Source: an uncultured Candidatus Saccharibacteria bacterium (GTDB lineage: Bacteria > Patescibacteriota > Minisyncoccia > UBA6257 > 1-14-0-10-40-38). From it: 64,000 nt of DNA. The stretch lies in assembly GCA_964543265.1 (NCBI GenBank), contig CAZIWN010000001.1:104577-168576 (forward strand). The letters are read 5' to 3'. Under the pieces are notes generated by a model. That model made no database searches. It saw nothing but the letters and a program-made list of their open reading frames with translations, and was not told the origin of the DNA. Every line of letters begins with the position of its first letter. The stretch's first letter is position 1. Below are positions 6,364-64,000 of the stretch, one piece after another. The position numbers and the translations under genes are program-made.

Positions 6364-6483
6364 TCATCCCGTTGCAATAAACCACAGAATGATGAGAAAG
6401 ATGATGGTTGACCATCTCATGTTGAGGATCGAGCACTTCCATGGCTCAGGTTCGCTTACTGTTGGTTCTGGTCGCCTTTTCAT
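6364..6483 (-). CDS. 39-aa hydrophobic peptide (MKRRPEPTVSEPEPWKCSILNMRWSTIIFLIILWFIATG) in a GC-elevated segment.
   Basis: SD site AAGGGGG lies 6 nt upstream of the ATG. The C-terminal half is hydrophobic. It is absent from the 60-aa ORF track and I translated it by hand. Confidence 0.35.
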   Translation of the reverse strand: MKRRPEPTVSEPEPWKCSILNMRWSTIIFLIILWFIATG

Positions 6484-6522
6484 TTTTAACCCCCTTAATC
6501 TAATGAACTAATTTTATTATAT

Positions 6523-6585
6523 AAATTAAAACCACCCACAGCAACCGTAGTCGCTGGGGTGGTTCTGCGTCAGATTGTCTGACGC
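6523..6585 (-). terminator. Two tandem hairpins downstream of the islet lipoprotein gene: GCGTCAGA/TCTGACGC, then CCACCC...GGGTGG followed by a T-tract on the minus strand.
   Basis: Perfect 8-bp and 6-bp stems. The minus-strand sequence continues as TTTTAATTT. Confidence 0.6.
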
Positions 6586-6878
6586 TAGTTCGTCGCGGAG
6601 ATGGTCTCCGCGAGGCGCTCGAGGCCATCGTTCAGCTTCTCGAGGCCGTCGATGATCTTCTCCATCTCGATCGTCTGCTCGCGCATCCGCTCGAGATCGG
6701 TGTCGTCGCTCTTGACGACGTTCGGCAGCATGCGGTCGCGCATCTCGTCGTAGGCCTCCACCTTCTTCGTCGGCACCTCCTCCTTGGCGGGGGAGACGCA
6801 GCCGACGGACAGGAGGCAGAAGAAGGCGGCGATCCAGAACCCGTAGTTGAACGCGAGCATGTTTCGAAGCAAACGCAT
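6585..6878 (-). CDS. Small secreted or lipoprotein-like protein of 97 aa, GC-rich codons.
   Basis: Signal peptide with a lipobox-like LLSVGC. SD site CAAGGGAAAGGGAAAG is upstream of the ATG, and a consensus promoter lies upstream on the minus strand. Confidence 0.55.
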   Translation of the reverse strand: MRLLRNMLAFNYGFWIAAFFCLLSVGCVSPAKEEVPTKKVEAYDEMRDRMLPNVVKSDDTDLERMREQTIEMEKIIDGLEKLNDGLERLAETISATN

Positions 6879-6987
6879 TTTCTTCTTTCCCTTTCCCTTG
6901 GAAAGCTATTCTCTCGCAAGAAGGCGCTCGCCCTCATCGCAAAAGAATGCTTATTTGTTAATGTTCAATCTAACCCTAACCTTTGTA

Positions 6988-7017
6988 ATTATAGCACAAT
7001 ATATTGATATTTGTCAA
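6988..7017 (-). promoter_or_regulatory. Near-perfect sigma70 promoter with extended -10 (TTGACA-18-TGcTATAAT), copy A of the repeated promoter module.
   Basis: Read on the minus strand: CTATTGACAAATATCAATATATTGTGCTATAAT. Confidence 0.7.
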
Positions 7018-7020
7018 TAG

Positions 7021-7074
7021 ATAAGAAAGCCAATAAAATAATAGCCCCGGGTGCGCATTTGCGCATTCCGGGGC
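7021..7074 (-). terminator. Terminator of the 123-aa islet gene: GCCCCGG...CCGGGGC stem with an inner GTGCGCA/TGCGCAT palindrome, followed by a T-rich tract on the minus strand.
   Basis: Read from the sequence. Confidence 0.6.
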
Positions 7075-7080
7075 AGTAGT

Positions 7081-7452
7081 TCAGCTCGAAGCGGTAGCGG
7101 TGGCGGGGAACATCTCGCGAAGTTCCGCGCGAATCTCCTGGGCGAACCTGGTCATCGCCAAGCGCCATTCATCTTCATCGGTATGGATCCTGAGCTTTTT
7201 GGGCCAATACTTCGGGTCGCGCTTGGCCTTGGCCATGTCTGCAAGGTAGACCATCGCATCGAATCCTGTCTTGGCGTTGTTGTCTCCCGGCTTCAGTTCG
7301 AAGTCGAACGACATCTCGCCAATCCCATCGAAATCGGGCGCGGTCACGAAAGCAACGAGCTCTTCGTAGCTTCCAAGACCAAGCCATCCTTCCGGCGCCT
7401 GCTTCTTGCCGGGAAGAAAATGAAGGTCGTCAAGAAAAACATTCCTTTCCAT
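7081..7452 (-). CDS. Hypothetical 123-aa protein, GC-rich codons, unknown function.
   Basis: Clean ORF with SD site AAGGGA upstream of the ATG. Its own promoter (TTGACA-17-TAAACT at 7503-7531, minus strand) and its own terminator flank it. Composition is unlike that of the flanking genes. Confidence 0.5.
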   Translation of the reverse strand: MERNVFLDDLHFLPGKKQAPEGWLGLGSYEELVAFVTAPDFDGIGEMSFDFELKPGDNNAKTGFDAMVYLADMAKAKRDPKYWPKKLRIHTDEDEWRLAMTRFAQEIRAELREMFPATATASS

Positions 7453-7574
7453 TTTTCCCTTGTCTCCGCTTGGGTTTTTCTTTCCCTTAGGTGCTGACGT
7501 ATAGTTTAGCCCAAAACACCCAATTTGTCAAAGTTATATTAATCTACTATCTTATGCTAAAATTACATAAATAA

Positions 7575-7901
7575 ATGAGAAAAATATTATTATTTTCAAT
7601 AATTGGAATTATTTTAACTTCTTCTTTTGGATTTGCTTTAGCCAAAGAAGAAAGTCCAGAAGATATTCTTTTTATCGGTAAAATTACAAAAATCGGCCAA
7701 GATTCAATTAAATTCAAAACCGAAGACGGCGAAGAGTATTCTGCGCTTATAGACAGACTTACTCATCTCACAGATAAAAGCTACGACGAAATTATTTTTG
7801 AGAAATTTAAAAAAGGCCAAAATATTAGGGTTTGGGGTGTTCTAGCTACAGACGATTTTCATATATATTCTTCTTTTATCAGAAACCTTTCTCTTAAATA
7901 A
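7575..7901 (+). CDS. Small secreted protein (signal peptide), native AT-rich.
   Basis: N-terminal signal peptide MRKILLFSIIGIILTSSFGFALA. Confidence 0.5.
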   Translation: MRKILLFSIIGIILTSSFGFALAKEESPEDILFIGKITKIGQDSIKFKTEDGEEYSALIDRLTHLTDKSYDEIIFEKFKKGQNIRVWGVLATDDFHIYSSFIRNLSLK

Positions 7902-14115: not shown

Positions 14116-14216
14116 TGTTGGATAAATCATTAAGCTAACCTTCTCCTGAGTTGGAGAAAAGGGTCTGCTGGTCACCCTAAAAGACTAGCAACGGTTCTTT
14201 GACAAGGGAGAGAGTC

Positions 14217-14417
14217 ATGAACAGTCACATGCACCCGCACGATCACGATCACGGCGTTCGCGCTTCCGACGATCGGCATCACGGTGTTCACGGCGACCAC
14301 AGTGATCACAGCGACAGTGGCCACAGGCACCACAGGGGTGCGCACGGTCACGATCACAAGGCGCACGGTCACCACCACGGGTCGGTCCACAAGCAGAAGA
14401 GGGGCGGCGCGCACTGA
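14217..14417 (+). CDS. Histidine-rich 66-aa peptide (about 38% His) with GC-rich codons; likely metal binding.
   Basis: SD site AAGGGAG lies 6 nt upstream of the ATG at 14217. The run is MNSHMHPHDHDHG...HGHDHKAHGHHHGSVH. A terminator follows. Confidence 0.55.
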   Translation: MNSHMHPHDHDHGVRASDDRHHGVHGDHSDHSDSGHRHHRGAHGHDHKAHGHHHGSVHKQKRGGAH

Positions 14418-24519: not shown

Positions 24520-25242
24520 ATGGCGTCAAATCAATCTAGGCTGGTTTTCGATATAGAAACAATAGGTGAAGATTTCAGTAAAATAGACAAAACAACCCAA
24601 GATAACTTAACAAATTGGATTAAAAGAGACGCTGAAGATAAGGATGATTATGAGAGAATGTTGGATGATCTCAAAAATGGTTTAGGCTTTTCCCCGTTAA
24701 CAGGGGAAATAGTGGCTATTGGAGTTTTAGATATTGATAAAGATAAGGGAGGTGTTTACTATCAGTCTCCAGATGTAAAATCTGAAAAATTCGAAGAAGA
24801 CGGCATTACCTATGAACCAATGGACGAAGCAGGAATTTTAAAAAAATTCTGGGACATAGCTTCAAAATATAGTGTCTTTGCCACCTTTAACGGCCGAGCT
24901 TTCGACGTTCCATTTATCATGGCTCGTTCGGCTATTAAGAAAGTTAAGCCGACAAAAAATCTGATGTTTAGTCGCTATCTCTATCAGCAGCATTCAGATT
25001 CAATTCATATAGATCTTTGCGACCAGCTTTCTTTCCAGGGAGCAGTTAGAAAAAAGGGGAGTCTTCATTTATGGAGTAGGGCACTGGGTATTAAAAGCCC
25101 CAAAGCCAGTGGAATTACCGGAGATGATGTTGGTTTCTTATTTAAAAAGAAAAAATATTTAGATATTGCTCGTTATAACGTGGGGGATTTAAAAGCCACA
25201 AAAGATCTTTTTAAGGTTTGGGAAGAATATTTTAATATCTAA
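24520..25242 (+). CDS. Predicted 3'-5' exonuclease (RNase H-like, PolB-exonuclease-related).
   Basis: Exo-I-like motif LVFDIETIG and later acidic motifs. Confidence 0.55.
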   Translation: MASNQSRLVFDIETIGEDFSKIDKTTQDNLTNWIKRDAEDKDDYERMLDDLKNGLGFSPLTGEIVAIGVLDIDKDKGGVYYQSPDVKSEKFEEDGITYEPMDEAGILKKFWDIASKYSVFATFNGRAFDVPFIMARSAIKKVKPTKNLMFSRYLYQQHSDSIHIDLCDQLSFQGAVRKKGSLHLWSRALGIKSPKASGITGDDVGFLFKKKKYLDIARYNVGDLKATKDLFKVWEEYFNI

Positions 25243-25796: not shown

Positions 25797-26141
25797 GTCG
25801 CTTAGGTGATTACACGGCATCGCAAAAAAATGCCGTGAGGAAAGTCTGGACTCCTGTCTTGCGAGAAATCGCAAGTAAACGTACCGGTTAAAAGCCGGCT
25901 GGGTAATCCAAGAGGTGCGAAAAGTGACGCTCAAAGACGAAAGAATTTGAGAATCCGCTTGCGGATTAACCTTCTCTATAGTGAAGGAGAGGGGTGCAAC
26001 GGCTAAATCCTTACGAGGTGCAAGATCGTGCTCTAAATTAAAACTTAGAGAGAATCGCTTGAGCCTTAAAGTAATTTAGGGCCTAGATAAATTATCACCG
26101 CTTCGCCGAAAGGCGGAAACAGAATCCGGCTTATTAGCGAC
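25797..26141 (+). ncRNA. rnpB: RNase P RNA (bacterial type A).
   Basis: Conserved GAGGAAAGUCUGGACUCC (P4 5' strand), ACAGAAUCCGGCUUA (P4 3' strand) and a P1 pairing GTCGCT/AGCGAC, followed by a terminator. Confidence 0.85.
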
Positions 26142-26155
26142 AAAAAATATCAGAA

Positions 26156-26477: not shown

Positions 26478-26558
26478 AATGGCGTGCTGCCACCAAGTAG
26501 CGCGCCATTTTTTTTGTAAAAAAAGACCACCCATTACTCGCTCGCGAGCTAGGGTGGT
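26478..26558. terminator. Pair of convergent terminators sharing a central T8/A7 tract: ATGGCG...CGCCAT followed by T8 on the plus strand, and ACCACCC...GGGTGGT followed by a T-tract on the minus strand.
   Basis: Read from the sequence. Confidence 0.65.
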
Positions 26559-26570
26559 TTTCTGTCGCTG

Positions 26571-26789: not shown

Positions 26790-26876
26790 TGGGTTCGCCC
26801 TCCCCGTGAATGGATTGATGGTCAAGAAACGTGTACTGATATTTACTATAAAACATTCTTAAATAATTTTCAAAAT

Positions 26877-26920
26877 GAAAAGGCCCGGCTAGAACTATAC
26901 GTTCTATAACCGGACCTTTT
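26877..26920. terminator. Bidirectional terminator with a long imperfect stem GGCCCGGCTAGAAC tatac GTTCTATAACCGGACC, flanked by A4 and T4.
   Basis: Read from the sequence. Confidence 0.65.
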
Positions 26921-26946: not shown

Positions 26947-27153
26947 TCAGGCGGTGGCAACTGCGAGTTGCCGGCTCTCGGCGCGGAGCTCTGCGAGTTC
27001 TCCGCTCGAGAACAGATTGAGCAGTTCAGGCCACGTCGGCATCCTGCCGAGCTTCCGAGCCTTCCGCGCGATGATCTGCCGCATCGTGGGCACCGCGACC
27101 TCTTCTGAGCACTGATCGCAACCATTCGCGCAGCACTTGGATTCGCACGCCAT
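26947..27153 (-). CDS. Cys-rich 68-aa protein (N-terminal CESKCCANGCDQC, basic/helical C-terminus).
   Basis: A GGGGGG tract lies 7 nt upstream of the ATG. Copy B of the consensus promoter sits about 90 nt upstream. Confidence 0.5.
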   Translation of the reverse strand: MACESKCCANGCDQCSEEVAVPTMRQIIARKARKLGRMPTWPELLNLFSSGELAELRAESRQLAVATA

Positions 27154-27246: not shown

Positions 27247-27276
27247 ATTATATCATACAATATATTAATTTGTCAA
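27247..27276 (-). promoter_or_regulatory. Near-perfect sigma70 promoter TTGACA-18-TGaTATAAT, copy B of the repeated promoter module.
   Basis: Read on the minus strand: CTATTGACAAATTAATATATTGTATGATATAAT. Confidence 0.7.
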
Positions 27277-27469
27277 TAGATAAAGCATAAAAAGCTAATA
27301 AAATAAGGATTTTAATATAAAAAATCTTAAAAATAAGGATTTTTTAACAACTCCAAATTTTCACCTCTTTACAAATTAAATTTACTTTGATATAATATGG
27401 AAATGAAGGTTGGACTCAAATCGTTATTAATAGTAGCGATGAGTCCAAAAAATAATTTAAAATAACTAT

Positions 27470-34532: not shown

Positions 34533-34590
34533 TAAATTCCACGCGCTTTAAGAGGAAGCGCGCAGAAATCACTTGTCGAAGGGAGATTGA

Positions 34591-34821
34591 ATGGGTGCGA
34601 AGAGGGGATCTACGGTGAGGCAGGGATCTGTTGGCGGCGCCTCTTCTTCTACTGTCTTGAACCGACTGGCTCAACCCGACTGGAAGTTCAAGGGGGTTGA
34701 ACCGATTCGCGGGGCGATGAAGGGGTGCAGGTCTTGCACCTTCGATGGCGTGCCTCACGGTCAGTTCAGGGTGGGTGGTCCGAGGGGCGTCGTCTCCAGG
34801 TGTCCTTGCACGAACAGGTGA
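34591..34821 (+). CDS. Small 76-aa ORF (CRSC...CPC) in a GC-rich islet; coding status uncertain.
   Basis: SD site GAAGGGAG lies 6 nt upstream of the ATG. The Gly/Arg/Ser/Val-rich composition is typical of a random GC-rich translation. A 5' UTR hairpin CGCGCTT/AAGCGCG precedes it and a strong terminator follows. Confidence 0.35.
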   Translation: MGAKRGSTVRQGSVGGASSSTVLNRLAQPDWKFKGVEPIRGAMKGCRSCTFDGVPHGQFRVGGPRGVVSRCPCTNR

Positions 34822-38399: not shown

Positions 38400-38445
38400 A
38401 AATTAAACCGCCAGGACCCTTGTTGGGCGCTGGCGGCGTTTAGTT
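38400..38445. terminator. Bidirectional terminator CCGCCAG...CTGGCGG.
   Basis: A-tract upstream; T-tract on the minus strand. Confidence 0.65.
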
Positions 38446-38451
38446 CAATAC

Positions 38452-38802
38452 TTAGCCCGTAGGCTCAGTATACGTAGCATCAAGAATAAAACTCTTCTTT
38501 TGATCAAAGGTTCCACTGAATTTATCATCTCCGCGCTTAACAGCAATTCTAACAGGAACCCACACGTGTCCGAATGTTGCATCTGCCTTGCGATACATCG
38601 TACAGGTTACCGAAACCGGAAGCAGGCCCTGAGCTGGTCCACGATTTTTAAGACTTAAGGTAAATGTTCTGATGTCCAGAAACCGCGTAGCTTCGATATC
38701 CATAGCATTCCACACGGAGTCATTATCTCCGTCAACCGTGCTAATTGCGATTTGCGTCATCCTGATTGCCAAAAGCACGCCAGCAGCCAAGCTCATTTTC
38801 AT
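38452..38802 (-). CDS. Secreted 116-aa protein (signal peptide MKMSLAAGVLLAIRMTQIAIS), GC-rich codons.
   Basis: SD site GGAG lies 6 nt upstream of the ATG at 38802. Copy C of the consensus promoter lies upstream. Confidence 0.5.
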   Translation of the reverse strand: MKMSLAAGVLLAIRMTQIAISTVDGDNDSVWNAMDIEATRFLDIRTFTLSLKNRGPAQGLLPVSVTCTMYRKADATFGHVWVPVRIAVKRGDDKFSGTFDQKKSFILDATYTEPTG

Positions 38803-38940
38803 CGGACATCTCCTTGTCAAAAGGGGATTCACTCCAGGGGTCAACCCAGAAAGTGGCAGCCATCACGGCAGCACCTTAGAAGCAAGAATAAGTCTTCTTT
38901 CCAAAGTGCCACCGTGACAACCTCTCAATATGCTTATAAA

Positions 38941-38970
38941 ATTATAGCACAATATTACTATAAAAGTCAA
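38941..38970 (-). promoter_or_regulatory. Near-perfect sigma70 promoter TTGACT-18-TGcTATAAT, copy C of the repeated promoter module.
   Basis: Read on the minus strand: CTATTGACTTTTATAGTAATATTGTGCTATAAT. Confidence 0.7.
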
Positions 38971-39029
38971 TAGTCACAAAACCCATATAAATTAGTCAAA
39001 ATAGGTCATTTAGGTTATTATAAATTCCA

Positions 39030-41353: not shown

Positions 41354-41382
41354 TTGACATTTAGATTCCTTATTGTTAAAAT
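41354..41382 (+). promoter_or_regulatory. Consensus promoter TTGACA-17-TAAAAT.
   Basis: Read from the sequence. Confidence 0.65.
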
Positions 41383-41389
41383 TGTAGGA

Positions 41390-41707
41390 CAAGCGAGTTT
41401 AGAGGTCGCAAGTCAGCCTTCTGACGCCAAAGTTCTCAAGCTCCTTCTTCGCACTTCGCAAGCGTCTTTAGGTCTAAAAAATGGACTCTCGACCTTCATC
41501 GGGAGTTGACCTTCCGTTTTCACTGGTCACAAATCCAGTGACCGCTGGCTAACCGATTACGACCAGGTTATCCGACACGGTGAGTAATCTCTGGGACAAT
41601 TAGATGTAACTAACCAGGGAGCGGTAAGAAATTGCGCCTCAAAAACTCGCGCGGTGCCCCAAGCTTCGAGCAGGGTGAAAGACAACCCTGCTCGAAGCTA
41701 CTTTTTT
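41390..41707 (+). ncRNA. Candidate ncRNA of about 320 nt (GC about 50%), bounded by the consensus promoter and a 15-bp perfect hairpin terminator AGCTTCGAGCAGGGT...ACCCTGCTCGAAGCT followed by T6.
   Basis: No ORF longer than 28 aa on either strand and no SD site. Identity unknown; I found no match to tmRNA, SRP RNA or RNase P RNA motifs. Confidence 0.45.
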
Positions 41708-41723
41708 AAAATAAATATAAAAC

Positions 41724-42719
41724 ATGAAATTATCCATAGGTATAGTTGGTCTCCCAAACGTTGGTAAATCGACTTTATTTAAAATAATCACAAAAAACGA
41801 AGTTAATATAGCTAATTATCCATTTTGCACAATTGATCCAAACGTAGGAGTCGTTTCTGTACCAGATGAAAGATTGGATAAATTAAGCGATATGTCTAAG
41901 TCTGCCAAAAAAGTACCAGCTATTATTGAATTTTATGATATTGCTGGTCTTGTTAAGGGCGCCTCTTCTGGTGAGGGATTGGGTAATCAGTTTTTATCTC
42001 ACATCAAAGAAACGGAGGTAATAGTCCAAGTATTAAGATGTTTTTCTTCTGAAGAAATAATTCACGTTGAAAACAGAGTTGATCCTTTAACTGATTTAGA
42101 AATTATAAATACCGAATTAATTTTAAAAGACTTAGACGTTGTCTCTAAAAGATTTGCCAAAATAGATTCAGAAATAAAATCAGGCAACAAACAGGCAGTT
42201 AAAAACAAAGAGGTTTTAGCTAAAATAAAAGAAAAGCTTGAAAAAGGGGAATTAATTAGCGATTTTAGAGATGAATTAATAGTTAAAGAACTCCAGCTTT
42301 TAACTGCTAAAAAGCAAATCTATTTTTTAAATGGTAAACCAGAAGATGTTAGTGAAAAATTGAAAGCCAAAATAGCTTCTTTAAATTGTGAGTATGTCGT
42401 TTCTGACTTATCTACCGCAGAAAATATTCCGGAACTGATTAAAAAAGCTTACAAAGTTCTAGATCTTATTAGTTTTTTCACTACTGGAGAAGACGAATCA
42501 CGCGCTTGGACTATTAAGCGTGGTTGGAAAGCGCCACAAGCTTCAGGGGTTATTCATACCGACTTTGAAAAGAAATTTATTCGCGCAGAGGTAATTGCTT
42601 CAGATAAATTATTAGAATGCGGTTCTTGGGTTAAAGCAAAAGAAAAAGGATTAATCAGGGTAGAGGGTAAAGAATACGAGGTGAAAGATGGTGATGTTTT
42701 AGTTGTCCGACACAGCTAA
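41724..42719 (+). CDS. ychF: Ribosome-binding ATPase YchF (Obg-family GTPase).
   Basis: Motifs GIVGLPNVGKSTLF and ANYPFCTIDPNVG, plus a C-terminal TGS domain. Confidence 0.9.
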   Translation: MKLSIGIVGLPNVGKSTLFKIITKNEVNIANYPFCTIDPNVGVVSVPDERLDKLSDMSKSAKKVPAIIEFYDIAGLVKGASSGEGLGNQFLSHIKETEVIVQVLRCFSSEEIIHVENRVDPLTDLEIINTELILKDLDVVSKRFAKIDSEIKSGNKQAVKNKEVLAKIKEKLEKGELISDFRDELIVKELQLLTAKKQIYFLNGKPEDVSEKLKAKIASLNCEYVVSDLSTAENIPELIKKAYKVLDLISFFTTGEDESRAWTIKRGWKAPQASGVIHTDFEKKFIRAEVIASDKLLECGSWVKAKEKGLIRVEGKEYEVKDGDVLVVRHS

Positions 42720-45366: not shown

Positions 45367-45379
45367 TACTATATGTTAT

Positions 45380-45638
45380 CCTTATAAGCGTCGGTAGGGC
45401 TGACTTTGTCTTAGCTCTGATAAGTGGGACACTTTGTGCCCACAACGAAATTCGGCGAATAGAGAGGCGTGGTCGCAAGATCACAATAGCTCCTCTCGTC
45501 AGAGTACGAGCAAATCAGCCCTACCGACACCATTTCAAAAACAAGGCACACGGTGCTGCTGGTACCCCCCCGTACCAGACACCGCTGAGTCACTGGTCCG
45601 ACGCTACCCGCAAGGGCGCGCTCGGACCTATTTTTTTA
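45380..45638 (+). ncRNA. Candidate structured ncRNA of about 260 nt. A 14-bp long-range helix (45390-45403 pairing with 45515-45528) encloses 111 nt. Then a GGTAC-C6-GTACC hairpin and a terminator GTCCGA...TCGGAC followed by T7.
   Basis: No credible ORF. Helices read directly from the sequence. Possible promoter TTGTAT-18-TACTAT (45344-45373). Confidence 0.4.
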
Positions 45639-45649
45639 CAATCTTAATT

Positions 45650-45676
45650 AAAACCCCGCCAATCGGCGGGGTTTTC
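45650..45676. terminator. Bidirectional terminator AAAACCCCGCC aatc GGCGGGGTTTT; it also terminates typA.
   Basis: Read from the sequence. Confidence 0.8.
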
Positions 45677-47479
45677 TTATTCAGTTCTCTTTCTTAGCGC
45701 ATTCTTTAAAATTCTTTTTCTTAATCTTATAGATGTTGGAGTGGCTTCTACCAATTCATCATCTCCAATATACTCCAAGGCCTCTTCAAGGGTTAATTTT
45801 TTAGCTGGCACCAAATCATCAGTTACAGCATCTGTTTTTGCTCTAAAGTTAGTCAACTGTTTAGCTTTACAAACATTTACCACCAAATCTTCTGATTTTG
45901 CATTTTGTCCTACAACTTGTCCTTCATAAACATCTTCTGCTGGAGCCACAAACATAACTCCTCTTTCTTGAGAGCTTAATAGAGCATAGGCGGTAGATTT
46001 TCCGGCCTCATGTGCAACCAAGGATCCATGTGGGCTAGTTTCTAATCCCTGTATTTTTGGGAAATATCCAGCGCTTAAACTATTTATAATTCCCATACCT
46101 TTAGTTTCTATAAGTAATTGATTTCTAAATCCAATAAGGCCCCTGGTAGGAATAAAGAAGTGAAACGCCACAGTTCCATTATCAACTGCCATATTTTTCA
46201 TTTCTCCCTTACGTTCACTTATCTTTTGAATAACCATTCCCGAATATTTTTCTGGTGCTTCAATCCAAACATCTTCGAATGGCTCCATGGTTACTCCGTT
46301 TTCTTCATTGAAAATAACTTCTGGTCTCGAAACTTGAAGTTCGTATCCTTCGCGTCTCATTTTTTCAATTAAAATTGAAAGGTGAAGTTCTCCTCTTCCG
46401 CTTACAATAAATTCGTCTGCAGATTTACCCTGCACAACCTGTAGCGCAACATCGCTATCTAATTCTTTCTCTAATCTTTCTTTTAGGTTTCTTGAAGTGC
46501 AATATTCTCCCTCTCTGCCAGCAAAAGGGGACGTATTTACTCCAAAAATCATTTTAACCGTAGGTTTTTCTATAACGATTGGCTTCATTCCTTTTGGATT
46601 TTCAGCTTCAGAAATAGTGTCTCCAATCATAATATTATCCACTCCAGCCACAGCTCCGATATCTCCAGCCACAAGCTCTGGAACTTCAACTTTTCCAAGT
46701 CCCGAAAAGACCATTAAGTTTGTAAGCTTAACTTTAGAAATTTCTCCATTTCTATGAACTACAGAAATCATCTGCCCAGATTTCATCTTTCCAGCAGTCA
46801 CTCTTCCAATTCCAATTTTTCCCTTAAAGTTGTCATAAGCTAAGGAAACAACCATCATTTGTAGTGTTTCATTTATTTCTGCTTTAGGTGTTGGGATGTG
46901 TTTAATAATCTCTTCAATTAATGGTTTAACTCCAGTCATATTCTCAAGTTCTGGGGCCATTCCAGTCTTTCCCAATCTTCCAGAAGCATAAACGATAGGG
47001 AAATTAAGCTGATCGTTATTTGCTCCTAATTCTATAAATAATTCTATAGTTTTTTCTAAAACATAATTAATTCTTGCATTGGGTTTATCAATTTTATTTA
47101 TAACTACAATAATCTTATGTCCCATCGCCAATGCTTTCTTTAAAACGAATCTTGTTTGAGGCATTGGGCCTTCTTGAGCATCGATAAGTAAAAGCGAACC
47201 ATCAGCCATATTTAAAACGCGCTCAACTTCTCCTCCGAAGTCTGCGTGTCCAGGGGTGTCTATGATATTAATTTTATATTCACCATAACGAACAGAAGCA
47301 TTTTTAGAGAATATAGTAATTCCTCTTTCTCTTTCAATTTCGTTAAAGTCCATTATCATCGATCCACCCTCTCCAAGCCTTCCAAGATCAGTTTCGGATT
47401 GTCTCAAAAGCGCATCAACTAAAGTTGATTTTCCGTGGTCGACGTGAGCAATAATTGCGATATTTCTTAAGTTATTCAT
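45677..47479 (-). CDS. typA: Translational GTPase BipA/TypA.
   Basis: G1 motif AIIAHVDHGKSTLVD and an EF-G-like domain organisation. Confidence 0.95.
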   Translation of the reverse strand: MNNLRNIAIIAHVDHGKSTLVDALLRQSETDLGRLGEGGSMIMDFNEIERERGITIFSKNASVRYGEYKINIIDTPGHADFGGEVERVLNMADGSLLLIDAQEGPMPQTRFVLKKALAMGHKIIVVINKIDKPNARINYVLEKTIELFIELGANNDQLNFPIVYASGRLGKTGMAPELENMTGVKPLIEEIIKHIPTPKAEINETLQMMVVSLAYDNFKGKIGIGRVTAGKMKSGQMISVVHRNGEISKVKLTNLMVFSGLGKVEVPELVAGDIGAVAGVDNIMIGDTISEAENPKGMKPIVIEKPTVKMIFGVNTSPFAGREGEYCTSRNLKERLEKELDSDVALQVVQGKSADEFIVSGRGELHLSILIEKMRREGYELQVSRPEVIFNEENGVTMEPFEDVWIEAPEKYSGMVIQKISERKGEMKNMAVDNGTVAFHFFIPTRGLIGFRNQLLIETKGMGIINSLSAGYFPKIQGLETSPHGSLVAHEAGKSTAYALLSSQERGVMFVAPAEDVYEGQVVGQNAKSEDLVVNVCKAKQLTNFRAKTDAVTDDLVPAKKLTLEEALEYIGDDELVEATPTSIRLRKRILKNALRKRTE

Positions 47480-62521: not shown

Positions 62522-63220
62522 TCAGTGATTCCAGTTTGTAGCGACTTCGCTACCAAACTGGTTTGCCAGACAATTCCTGAAGCGTTCGTCTTCCTCCTTT
62601 TCCCTCTTCAGGATGTCTCCAATTCCCTGCTGGTTCTCTTCGAGCTTCTCGAAGCTCATTCCGCAGAAGGCGCTTCTCGCCAATTCTTCGCAGTTGCGAA
62701 GCTTGGCAAAGCCGACGACGAGATCATTCAGCTGGGACGGCGACAAATCGTGGGGGTTGATCTCAGGCAAGGTCTCGAATAGATTCATCGCCATCTTTTG
62801 GAGATGATCGAGATCCATCTTGCCTTCTGGGTCCTGCAAGTAATTCCAGGATTGATGATCAACCAAGCTCTTCTTATGGAGCTTGGTAAGTTCGTGCTTG
62901 AGAAAATCGTTTTCCTTCTTCAGGGCTTCGATTTCCTCGTGAGCGCTTGTGAGCTCTTGGGTGAGCTCGAGGATGTTGCTCTGGCTCTCGCCAGTTTCGA
63001 TCTGAGGCTCGATTGCGCTCCTCTCGGCAACGATCTCCGTTTCCGGAGCCGTCGGCGCAAGTGTCACAGCCTGGTAGGCTTCGATCTTGGTAGGGTCATC
63101 TCCAACGAAGTTTTGTTGAGGGTGACAACCATAATCGACGCCGTGATTGTTGTTTCCTGAAATTGCGAACATGGCAACGCAGAAAACAACAAGCGCAATC
63201 AATCCGACAATTCGCTTCAT
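62522..63220 (-). CDS. Secreted coiled-coil protein of 232 aa with GC-rich codons.
   Basis: Signal or TM anchor MKRIVGLIALVVFCVAMFAISG, heptad-rich middle and SD site AAAGGAG upstream. Second gene of a two-gene minus-strand operon. Confidence 0.55.
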   Translation of the reverse strand: MKRIVGLIALVVFCVAMFAISGNNNHGVDYGCHPQQNFVGDDPTKIEAYQAVTLAPTAPETEIVAERSAIEPQIETGESQSNILELTQELTSAHEEIEALKKENDFLKHELTKLHKKSLVDHQSWNYLQDPEGKMDLDHLQKMAMNLFETLPEINPHDLSPSQLNDLVVGFAKLRNCEELARSAFCGMSFEKLEENQQGIGDILKREKEEDERFRNCLANQFGSEVATNWNH

Positions 63221-63249
63221 AGCTGACAGCTCCTTTGTCTTTCGAGTGA

Positions 63250-63295
63250 TCCCGGAAGGATCTCTTTCACTACTTAAGCCGAGATCCTTCCGGGA
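63250..63295 (-). promoter_or_regulatory. Perfect 15-bp intercistronic hairpin TCCCGGAAGGATCTC...GAGATCCTTCCGGGA with no U-tract.
   Basis: Sits between two co-oriented genes; possible processing, stability or attenuation element. Confidence 0.45.
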
Positions 63296-63311
63296 ATCTT
63301 CTCGGCTGCCG

Positions 63312-63851
63312 TCAGTTGTGGATCTTGTTGTTCGAGCCCTGGTAGTTTTCGACGTTGGCGTCGCTCCTGCCGTTCAAGTCAACGTCGTTGCCGTTGTTCC
63401 CGCCATCGGGACCAGTGAGCAACCCACCACCTTCGAAGTCGTGATCGTTGTTGTCGCAGTTCTTCTCGTTGACGCCGCCACCGTTCTTGATGTCGATGTC
63501 ATTCCCGTCGCAATCGTCCAGCTTGATCTTGCCGCCATCGGCATCGATCTCGTCGCCGTTCAGGCCTTCACCGCGGGCCAGTACGCCCTTCTTGATGGTG
63601 ATCTTGGCCTTCACGTAGTCGCCGTGATTCCAGATCTCTTCGACGACGACGTTGTCCGCGCTGTCTGGGCTGTTGGTGACCTTTCCTTCTCCGTCCGGAG
63701 CGGTCCAGGTCTGGCCAGGTCCCAGGCGAGTCGTGTGCGTTCCCGATGACGATCCGCTCGTCGCCGCGTTGGCGACCGACGTCCCTCCTCCGATCGCGAA
63801 GATCGCGACCAGAGCGAGTGCGAGCAAGGCGAAAATCTTCCTCGGATTCAT
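63312..63851 (-). CDS. Secreted Asp/Gly/Asn-rich protein with DxDxDG-like repeats; putative Ca2+-binding protein.
   Basis: Signal peptide MNPRKIFALLALALVAIFAIGGGTSVANA. Loops DADGGKIKLDD, DGNDIDIKNGG and DNNDHDFEGGG. SD site AGGAG upstream. Confidence 0.55.
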   Translation of the reverse strand: MNPRKIFALLALALVAIFAIGGGTSVANAATSGSSSGTHTTRLGPGQTWTAPDGEGKVTNSPDSADNVVVEEIWNHGDYVKAKITIKKGVLARGEGLNGDEIDADGGKIKLDDCDGNDIDIKNGGGVNEKNCDNNDHDFEGGGLLTGPDGGNNGNDVDLNGRSDANVENYQGSNNKIHN

Positions 63852-64000
63852 GCGTTCACTCCTGTGTTTTGGCCCGTTTTCGGTTCTTAAGCGAAATCGG
63901 GCTTAAGCCTACCTCCCCTTCTTTCGTCGCTGTTTTGTCAAGGTGCTACGAATCTAGGGCTACACACCCCAGTTTCATACTTAACATTACTCCTTTAACA

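Follow-up and report, generated by a model that had tools for sequence, protein, structure and literature searches.

Three small GC-rich genes scattered over the 64,000-nucleotide (nt) stretch of DNA analysed here (the window) are each preceded, on the minus strand, by nearly the same promoter sequence, which raises the question of whether these three modules, A, B and C, are copies of one another or resemble each other only as strong promoters do. A preliminary description took them for three copies of a duplicated regulatory module, with a degenerate fourth copy elsewhere, and read this as common ancestry or design of the gene cassettes that they drive. On sequence grounds the best explanation, and a probable one taken as a whole, is that A, B and C serve as strong promoters for the housekeeping sigma factor (sigma-70/SigA type), each heading a single-gene unit, that A and B are paralogs older than the divergence of the sampled species while C is a more divergent member, and that promoter and terminator are stable in the locus while the cargo evolves fast or is replaced. 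Taken separately, the common ancestry of A and B is solid and that of C with A and B is plausible. The three modules are as follows.

6988..7041, minus strand: promoter module A, with the upstream motif TTATTTTATTGGCTTT at 7026-7041, TATCTATTGACAAAT at 7009-7023, the -35 hexamer TTGACA at 7012-7017 and the -10 hexamer TATAAT at 6988-6993
27247..27306, minus strand: promoter module B, with TTATTTTATTAGCTTT at 27291-27306, TATCTATTGACAAAT at 27268-27282, the -35 hexamer at 27271-27276 and the -10 hexamer TATAAT at 27247-27252
38941..38991, minus strand: promoter module C, with TTTATATGG at 38983-38991, CTATTGACT including the -35 hexamer TTGACT at 38965-38970, and the -10 hexamer TATAAT at 38941-38946

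The sites that had been proposed at 6988-7017, 27247-27276 and 38941-38970 were found at those minus-strand positions, and the layout claimed for them, TTGAC(A/T), an 18-nt spacer and TG(c/a)TATAAT, is present in all three. The spacer ends in TGTGC (A and C) or TATGA (B), giving each site TGn before the -10 hexamer and an extended -10 of T(G/A)TGn, and the hexamers match consensus at 12/12 positions in A, 12/12 in B and 11/12 in C. Each site thus has the marks of a sigma-70-type promoter: a -35 near TTGACA, a -10 near TATAAT, a spacer within 16-18 nt and TG at -15/-14. The genes said to lie downstream are also there, namely a 97-amino-acid (aa) lipoprotein open reading frame (ORF) at 6585-6878, a 68-aa Cys-rich ORF at 26947-27153 and a 116-aa ORF at 38452-38802, and the distance from promoter to ORF is 87-132 nt. 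Promoter function, as previously claimed, is supported indirectly by the consensus match, the sensible spacing, the terminators that end the units and the conservation of the sites in orthologs; transcription itself, the positions of the transcription start sites (TSS), promoter strength and the role of the upstream motif are what we infer from these features.

Within the window the modules stand apart. The pattern CTATTGAC-N7-11-ATATTGT-N2-4-TATAAT matches only 6988-7020, 27247-27279 and 38941-38973 and gave no match in 100 shuffles, and a repeat finder returned A, B and C as the top direct-repeat family (D1 and D9). The exact 15- and 16-nt blocks TATCTATTGACAAAT and TTATTTTATTRGCTTT are found exactly only at A and B, which additionally share a 10-mer in a register shifted by 2 nt. 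The flank shared by A and B had been described as 'UP-like', and it is the sharing, borne out by these blocks, that holds and not the label. The consensus of the UP element, a promoter sequence upstream of the -35, is -59 nnAAAwwTwTTTTnnnAAAnnn -38. Compared by eye with this consensus, the upstream sequence TTATTTTATTrGCTTTyTTATCTA is T-rich on the non-template strand, contains GGCTTTC and does not fit; in copy A it also overlaps the U-tract of the terminator of the neighbouring cREC gene. Just upstream of promoter B, at 27287-27343, lies a tandem duplication of about 30 nt (ATAAAAAGCTAATAAAATAAGGATTTT / ATAAAAAATCTTAAAAATAAGGATTTT; 78% identical).

The likeness of the core is in itself uninformative about descent. 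In a scan of one genome per bacterial species, the core pattern was found at least 118 times outside the window, in Clostridia, Bacilli, Saccharibacteria, Spirochaetes and others. It stands there ahead of genes for tRNAs and of ordinary protein-coding genes, and among the matches listed a promoter in a metagenome-assembled genome of [Eubacterium] saphenum differs from copy A at 3/33 positions. Given this spread over unrelated phyla, likeness in the core is generic to strong sigma-70-type promoters, and the shared -35, extended -10 and -10 sequences are not evidence of ancestry. The resemblance was therefore measured against 116 external promoters with the same core, by local alignment of 93 nt. 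The A-B score of 33 lies above the control maxima (32 for A and 31 for B, n=116), and the 40 nt upstream, taken alone, give A and B a score of 16 where the controls average about 7 (sd 2). The motif that distinguishes the family lies at about -40 to -60 and reads TTTATwTrG(G)CTTTyTT followed by (a)TCTATTGAC; of the 116 controls, 115-116 lack its first part. The sub-motif TTTATwTrG occurs in 5/7 family sequences and rG(r)CTTTyT in 4/7, each in 0/116 controls, with the looser GCTTTyT in 1/116.

For C the same comparisons weigh against membership in a common family. The A-C score of 27 falls below the control 95th percentile of 28, the B-C score of 20 equals the control mean, more than 50 foreign promoters score above C on a profile built from A and B, and the upstream sub-motifs that link C to the others were defined only after the sequences had been seen. 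C nevertheless probably belongs to the family, on the strength of that post-hoc motif and of one ortholog, described below. The pairwise alignment of the three regions thus separates A-B, above all same-core controls, from A-C and B-C, which lie within them, and the idea of a duplicated module stands firmly for A and B and weakly for C, through an upstream motif that is clearest in its ortholog. The family is also small, and could reflect local history and not a system: nhmmer searches of the window, of about 90 kb from close relatives and of 812 kb from distant ones, with the A+B profile and with a seven-sequence profile, gave no member other than the training loci. The best external match to the A/B-only profile was L021 (27.4 bits), and that to the seven-sequence profile was L064 (26.6 bits), with L021 narrowly second at 26.4. 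As separate observations, two loci in other Patescibacteria are built in the same style: in L021 (601-1151, plus strand) ATCTATTGACAAATATAAATATTGTGTGTTATAAT follows right after a terminator and lies ahead of a GC-rich ORF, and in L154 (19649-20613, plus strand) TTGACT-17-TGTGCTATAAT precedes a GC-rich gene for a secreted-looking protein of 294 aa.

Orthologous loci, obtained from exact-protein and cluster look-ups, are L121 (a short Logan contig), L203, L204, L205, L206, L207, L208, L209 and L210 (GCA_009694925.1), and the genomes that bear them are 72-88% identical to the window in nucleotide sequence. Promoter A is kept in L121, L208 and L209, promoter B in L205 and L210, and promoter C in L203 and L204. 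Core identity to the window is 32/33 (L121) and 30/33 (L208/L209) for A and 29/33 (L205) for B, so that promoter A is 30-32/33 identical where its lipoprotein has only 66-75% aa identity. In five orthologous pairs (L121, L203, L205, L208) the hexamers are identical at 12/12 positions and the spacer is always 18 nt long, while the identity of the spacer sequence drifts between 9/18 and 17/18; a sixth ortholog, in L210, likewise reads TTGACA-18-TATAAT, and the 18-nt spacer is found in 8/8 sequences. Invariant hexamers and spacing around a drifting spacer indicate selection on promoter function.

The orthologs also bear on the history of the three modules. The orthologs of A and B keep TRTGn, and A-B scores across species are 26-36; A of L121 and B of L205 share, in addition, TATAATTATAGAG(G)TAAG just 3' of the -10. 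Given that L208 has GGACTTTCTT, the counterpart of GGCTTTCTT in the window, and that L121 is without it, the longer form common to A and B is ancestral, with a deletion in L121. The ortholog of C in L203/L204 reads TTTATATGGGCTTTCTTGCCTATTGAC where A has TTTTATTGGCTTTCTTATCTATTGAC; in L203 its score against A is 28-29, and it has TTTATATGGGCTTTCTT, a motif, defined post hoc, that is present in 0-1/116 controls. In the same ortholog the spacer ends in TGTTG, which puts the TG out of register at -15/-14 and tells against C as a regular member.

These data allow the rival explanations to be weighed. It is possible that each site was selected on its own toward an optimal sigma-70 promoter in AT-rich DNA, with no duplication. 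The wide occurrence of the core pattern speaks for such pure convergence, as do an external promoter (L036) that differs from copy A at 3/33 positions, the A-C and B-C scores inside the controls, the foreign promoters that outscore C on the A/B profile and a spacer that drifts freely between orthologs. However, this is unlikely, given that A and B share their exact blocks and 10-mer beyond the consensus positions and outscore every control, that their similarity persists across species and reaches past the -10 in orthologs, and that the upstream motif occurs in 0-1/116 controls. A second scenario, in which the upstream motif is an activator site, or a site for the C-terminal domain of the RNA polymerase alpha subunit (alpha-CTD), kept for co-regulation of a regulon, would leave the similarity silent on duplication. 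The position of the motif fits class I activators and UP elements, the orthologs of all three modules conserve it next to a drifting spacer, and each of the cargos is a small protein of accessory or surface type. The motif nevertheless fails the UP-element consensus AAAwwTwTTTT... (again by visual comparison), L121 keeps promoter and gene although 9-10 nt of the motif are gone there, and the distance of the motif to the -35 differs, B having 5-6 extra nt; co-regulation is thus a doubtful account of the similarity, though one that deserves consideration, and it is compatible with common ancestry and does not exclude it.

Copying of the module to the three loci by a mobile promoter-bearing repeat (of the kind of miniature inverted-repeat transposable elements or Correia elements) or as part of a recently inserted mobile cassette might be suspected from copies that lie 12-20 kb apart, all heading foreign-looking GC-rich genes, in units that are insertions relative to distant relatives. 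This scenario is very improbable: every copy occupies the same orthologous position in genomes 15-25% diverged, so that nothing has moved recently, no further copies exist in the window or the relatives, viral contigs gave no match and the A/B pattern was not found in IMG/VR. A mobile element was rejected also on its ends, as the regions examined around modules and units hold no terminal inverted repeats or target-site duplications. Least credible of all is that the shared segment ATATTGTG / CAATATATTG is an operator through which a repressor acts at all three promoters, for example a palindrome like the NrdR box. That box is a conserved 16-bp palindrome, usually in tandem at a spacing of about 31 nt, upstream of nrd genes. 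Copy A does contain a perfect 10-bp palindrome, CAATATATTG, that agrees with 12/16 positions of the NrdR-box consensus, and several external matches with the same core look, by our reading, like promoters of nrdR type that have full palindromes. Both A orthologs break the palindrome of copy A, however (CTATATATTG in L208 and CGATATATTG in L121), and B and C have a shorter one or none; a second box is missing at the usual distance, the downstream genes are unrelated to ribonucleotide reduction, and the extended -10 accounts in full for TGTGC/TATGA before TATAAT. The NrdR-like operator was rejected on these grounds.

If A, B and C are taken as housekeeping-sigma promoters heading single-gene units, a simple mechanism can be proposed. 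The -35 is read by region 4 of sigma, the extended -10 by region 3 and the -10 by region 2. Region 4 would contact TTGACA/T, region 3 T(G/A)TGn and region 2 TATAAT, with the spacer fixed at 18 nt, and the upstream element would be a relic of promoter duplication, or else a site for alpha-CTD or an activator. Each unit would give presumably high, independent expression of an accessory surface or small protein between housekeeping genes. The A and B copies would predate the split of the sampled species, with C the more divergent member, and promoter and terminator would form a stable 'expression slot' whose cargo evolves fast or is replaced.

The degenerate fourth copy proposed at 7503-7531, as promoter of a 123-aa gene, does not belong to the family, and a further promoter lies divergently from B.

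7503..7531, minus strand: promoter of the 123-aa cREC_REC gene, TTGACA-17-TAAACT
27368..27396, plus strand: divergent promoter B' of a 671-aa He_PIG/PKD surface protein, TTTACA-17-TGATATAAT

The site at 7503-7531 scores 13, 13 and 10 against A, B and C where the background has a mean of 11.5 (sd 2.3), and its alignment to the family is thus at background. Its role as promoter of the 123-aa gene is, by contrast, upheld: it is promoter-like, it differs from L208/L209 at one base, and the gene (7081-7452, minus strand) matches Pfam cREC_REC at 1.8e-9. On this sequence evidence it is a real conserved promoter unrelated to the A/B/C family. B and B' stand back-to-back about 100 nt apart and score 24 against each other, where the external mean is 13.6 and the maximum 23, and a 35-nt stretch spanning B' is perfectly conserved in L205.

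A, B and C each head an autonomous unit of promoter, structured leader, GC-rich ORF and intrinsic terminator, with the following parts (dG, predicted folding free energy; GC3, GC content at third codon positions; RBS, ribosome-binding site).

6879..6981, minus strand: leader of unit A, about 103 nt (from the inferred TSS), with a conserved stem-loop and a purine-rich RBS region
6585..6878, minus strand: cargo A, a 97-aa putative lipoprotein with signal peptide, LSVGC and helical C-terminus, GC3 0.95
6524..6563, minus strand: intrinsic terminator of unit A, dG -23.6, conserved in L121, L208 and L209
27154..27240, minus strand: leader of unit B, whose 5' end holds a stem-loop (GUGAUGAUAAGGGAUUGGCCC...)
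26947..27153, minus strand: cargo B, 68 aa, in which one domain like the homing-endonuclease-associated repeat follows an N-terminal Cys cluster, GC3 0.75-0.76
26874..26916, minus strand: intrinsic terminator of unit B, dG -20.7, conserved in L205
38803..38934, minus strand: leader of unit C, with a 24-bp stem-loop, fold z-score -4.6
38452..38802, minus strand: cargo C, a 116-aa orphan ORF with an AAGGAG RBS upstream, coding status unproven
38400..38437, minus strand: intrinsic terminator at the end of slot C, 84% identical in L203

The leader of unit A is better conserved than the coding sequence across four orthologs. Its hairpin AUUCUUUUGC…GCGAGAGAAU is predicted in all orthologs with mostly invariant pairs, and a CUUUCCAAGGGAAAG hairpin adjoins the RBS. 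As the upstream frame differs between orthologs, the stretch 6879-6981 is non-coding, and it may be a regulatory leader. Cargo A has codon-position GC of 0.57/0.34/0.95 and a single homolog among 5.8 billion proteins, its ortholog P0001; its Cys is conserved in L121 and L208. L205 and L210 conserve the hairpin sequence of unit B. Cargo B gave nothing in a word-based search, and an exhaustive search led to HNH_repeat-type proteins: residues 19-67 match repeat proteins (P0003 at 2e-17), of which P0006 has 8 copies of PF18780. The L205 ortholog of cargo B has 79% aa identity. For cargo C a protein search matched only itself, GC is flat across the codon positions and the AlphaFold model has a mean confidence (pLDDT) of 35; cargo C may therefore not encode a protein, which would count against the best explanation. 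The slot C terminator may also serve a convergent ddl-like gene. A phage or defence origin was considered for these units and rejected: no viral contig matched, the A, B and C cargos gave no PADLOC match, and PHROGs matched cREC alone.

Beside these units, the terminators at 6524-6563 (minus strand) and 26519-26560 (minus strand, of a unit with an 84-aa ORF) share CAGAA(AA)CCACCC[CT]AGC...GGGTGGT, which is either a repeated module or chance. Next to unit A, at 6386-6505 (minus strand), is a 39-aa ORF with a hydrophobic C-terminus (MKRRPEPTVSEPEPWKCSILNMRWSTIIFLIILWFIATG) and its own TATAAT and AAGGGGG RBS, which looks like a type I toxin or small membrane peptide. It is present in L121 and, like the dnaJ terminator, absent from L208/L209, and 11/39 of its residues differ in L001, though L001, which ends at 7878, equals the window from 6505 onward; L122, the other contig of the L001 sample, is 100% identical to the window.

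The places that these units occupy were examined in distant relatives for slots C, E and H. In L125, L129, L132, L133, L134, L137, L154 and L160 the genes that flank the slots lie about 30-45 nt apart, as the pairs ddl-alr or serS-alr and, at slot E, as an aminoacyl-tRNA synthetase gene and a nucleotidyltransferase-like gene. Given this adjacency, the units at C, E and H are insertions. The sister species L203 has GC-rich islets in the same slots, and at C and E their cargo is unrelated to that of the window.

38438-38933 of the window against 9361-9903 of L203: slot C, with promoter 82% identical, cargo 56% (shuffled 56%) and terminator 84%
34560-34815 of the window against 5330-5635 of L203: slot E, with promoter 87% identical, cargo 54% (shuffled 55%) and terminator 96%

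Neither tblastx nor blastn gave a match between the slot C and E cargos of the window and L203, homology stops 15-35 nt into the leader, and slot C of L203 holds a different ORF of 147 aa with a GC3 of 0.85. As promoter and terminator are conserved while the cargo is replaced, the promoter is a property of the locus, whichever gene it drives. The common design read into the cassettes is hence correct in that these are promoter-led units, and incorrect in that the promoter is tied to the locus, the slot C gene having been swapped in L203. This raises the possibility, offered tentatively, that Paceibacteria chromosomes hold fixed expression slots, in which GC-rich small genes are swapped by recombination in the conserved flanks and expressed at once, with GC-rich codon usage actively maintained and the A/B/C promoters as a reusable front end. 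In such slots, alleles may circulate through, or be tuned to, a GC-rich partner or pool, or GC-rich mRNA may be selected for stability or yield.

The composition of the cargos is itself conserved. Islet genes have GC3 of 0.67-0.95 against 0.22-0.31 for their neighbours and about 0.25 for the genome, and 6/9 near-consensus promoters of the window precede DNA of at least 47% GC (P = 1.6e-5). Across species whose housekeeping genes have a synonymous divergence (dS) of about 0.7, the lipoprotein gene (6585-6878) keeps GC3 of 0.95/0.90/0.92, with G<->C exchanges making up 19/25 and 8/15 of its third-position differences; the corresponding values are 0.76/0.81 and 4/18 for gene B (26947-27153) and 0.67/0.68/0.61 with 5/40 and 17/67 for cREC (7081-7452). 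In dnaJ, truB and alr, GC3 is 0.24-0.31 and G<->C exchanges are 0-3% of third-position differences, and the third positions of the lipoprotein gene have diverged by 16% against 41% in dnaJ. Recent horizontal gene transfer (HGT) was therefore rejected as the source of GC-richness in A and B: both are syntenic in 3-4 genomes, and GC3 is undiminished at a divergence at which recent transfer is no explanation. Possible causes are selection for the yield or stability of the mRNA, exchange of alleles with a GC-rich pool, and biased gene conversion. On the first of these, Raghavan, Kelkar and Ochman are said to have found, in 2012, that GC-rich gene variants are favoured.

Comparison with described systems shows partial likeness to several. 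With the extended -10 sigma-70/SigA promoters of Firmicutes and Actinobacteria, whose motif is defined as TGn or T-17G-16T-15G-14 (PMC6212719, PMC2613000), A, B and C share consensus -35 and -10 hexamers, TGn and TRTG. They differ in a spacer fixed at 18 nt where the modal spacer is 17, in the added upstream TTTATwTrG(G)CTTTyTT that same-core controls lack, and in their host, which appears to belong to the Paceibacteria within the candidate phyla radiation (CPR). The units also recall the phage moron, a single accessory gene with its own promoter and terminator and deviant composition, inserted between genes that are adjacent in relatives (PMC4378225). Like morons they consist of one gene with its own sigma-70 promoter and factor-independent terminator, the tested slots C, E and H are insertions between adjacent genes, and the units have 47-63% GC in a genome of 35%. 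Unlike morons, they do not lie in a phage, having dnaK/dnaJ, truB, RNase P RNA, ddl, alr and ychF as neighbours, and the A and B units are old and syntenic across species, their GC-richness being maintained and not a mark of recent arrival; no match to a viral contig was found, and the only PHROG match was that of cREC (phrog_1479, unknown function).

Flexible genomic islets of the replacement type carry different cargo at one locus from strain to strain, exchanged through recombination in their conserved flanks. Slots C and E resemble such islets in that flanks of 82-96% identity enclose cargo that aligns no better than shuffled sequence. They differ in scale, at 0.3-0.6 kb and one gene, and in that the flanks consist of promoter with early leader and of terminator, so that any new cargo comes under expression automatically; the regions examined showed neither a recombinase nor an att-like site. 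Integron cassettes are similarly small, promoter-dependent, swappable and of foreign composition, but the units here have their own promoter and terminator and are scattered, not arrayed, and no attC-like inverted repeats were present in the three regions examined. HGT is described as frequent in Patescibacteria in a study whose text does not mention promoters (PMC12455944).

The setting is a window of 35% GC whose AT-rich background is broken up by about a dozen islets of 0.2-1.5 kb with 50-55% GC each. It holds the housekeeping genes hrcA, grpE, dnaK, dnaJ, truB, ddl, alr, ychF and bipA, genes like those of type IV pili and type II secretion systems, genes for ribosomal proteins L9 and L27 and for several aminoacyl-tRNA synthetases, and two RNA genes, tRNA-Gln and the following.

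25797-26145, plus strand: class-A RNase P RNA, 95.5 bits, E = 8e-28, missed at the default threshold since the Rfam gathering score is 100

The host appears to be a Paceibacteria (Patescibacteria/CPR) bacterium. The 90%-identity cluster that contains a 240-aa exonuclease of the window (24520-25242) also contains MST03949.1, whose name is 'Candidatus Pacebacteria / Paceibacterota bacterium', and the nearest metagenomic relatives of the alanine racemase, at no more than 56% identity, come from sources that include 0.1-um-filtered Hainich groundwater. Two further explanations were rejected. An origin of the islets in structured RNA is contradicted by Rfam searches (gathering threshold; E <= 1), which gave only tRNA-Gln and the sub-threshold RNase P RNA, and also by the fact that A and B head real ORFs with strong codon-position GC periodicity. 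An assembly chimera is contradicted by the recurrence of locus A in independent runs (L001 and L002 at 98-100% identity, and the diverged orthologs L121, L208 and L209).

Several other islets and gene differences were observed. The largest GC-rich block, at the window end (62523-63974), holds two secreted-looking minus-strand ORFs of 232 aa and 179 aa, with GC3 of 0.63 and 0.79, the former with a weak PADLOC match (PDC-M33C, 1e-4). At 14199-14417 (plus strand), within an islet flanked by a bidirectional terminator, a GC-rich ORF of 72 aa that is rich in His and Asp (…HMHPHDHDHGVRASDDRHHGVHGDHSDHSDSGHRHH…; codon-position GC 0.73/0.41/0.74) may encode a metal-binding peptide. The region 41354-41725 (plus strand) has a near-consensus promoter, TTGACA-17-TAAAAT, followed by about 300 nt of 50% GC and a perfect terminator; with no ORF of at least 60 aa, a fold z-score of -6.5, patchy conservation in L203 (86 nt at 86%) and no Rfam match, it is a candidate non-coding RNA. 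Among the relatives, L205 (10845-12788), L207 (5325-7268) and L210 (5559-7529) have a PG_binding_1/CARDB gene of 647-656 aa between the exonuclease gene and the RNase P RNA that the window does not have, and L204 has a PIF1 helicase gene at the position of the window islet 45379-45711.

The finding itself is modest, a small paralogous family of canonical strong promoters. To our knowledge there is neither an experimental promoter map for CPR/Patescibacteria nor a promoter study of the group. The invariant hexamers and spacing across species constitute sequence-level evidence for canonical extended -10 sigma-70 promoters in CPR/Patescibacteria, and the three modules are candidate strong promoters for use as genetic parts. 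It is the context more than the family that deserves attention: moron-like promoter/terminator slots with maintained GC-rich cargo in a CPR chromosome. If this were true genome-wide, it would give streamlined episymbiotic bacteria a simple route by which to acquire small surface or secreted proteins and express them at once, and would pose the question of what maintains GC-rich genes in an AT-rich genome.

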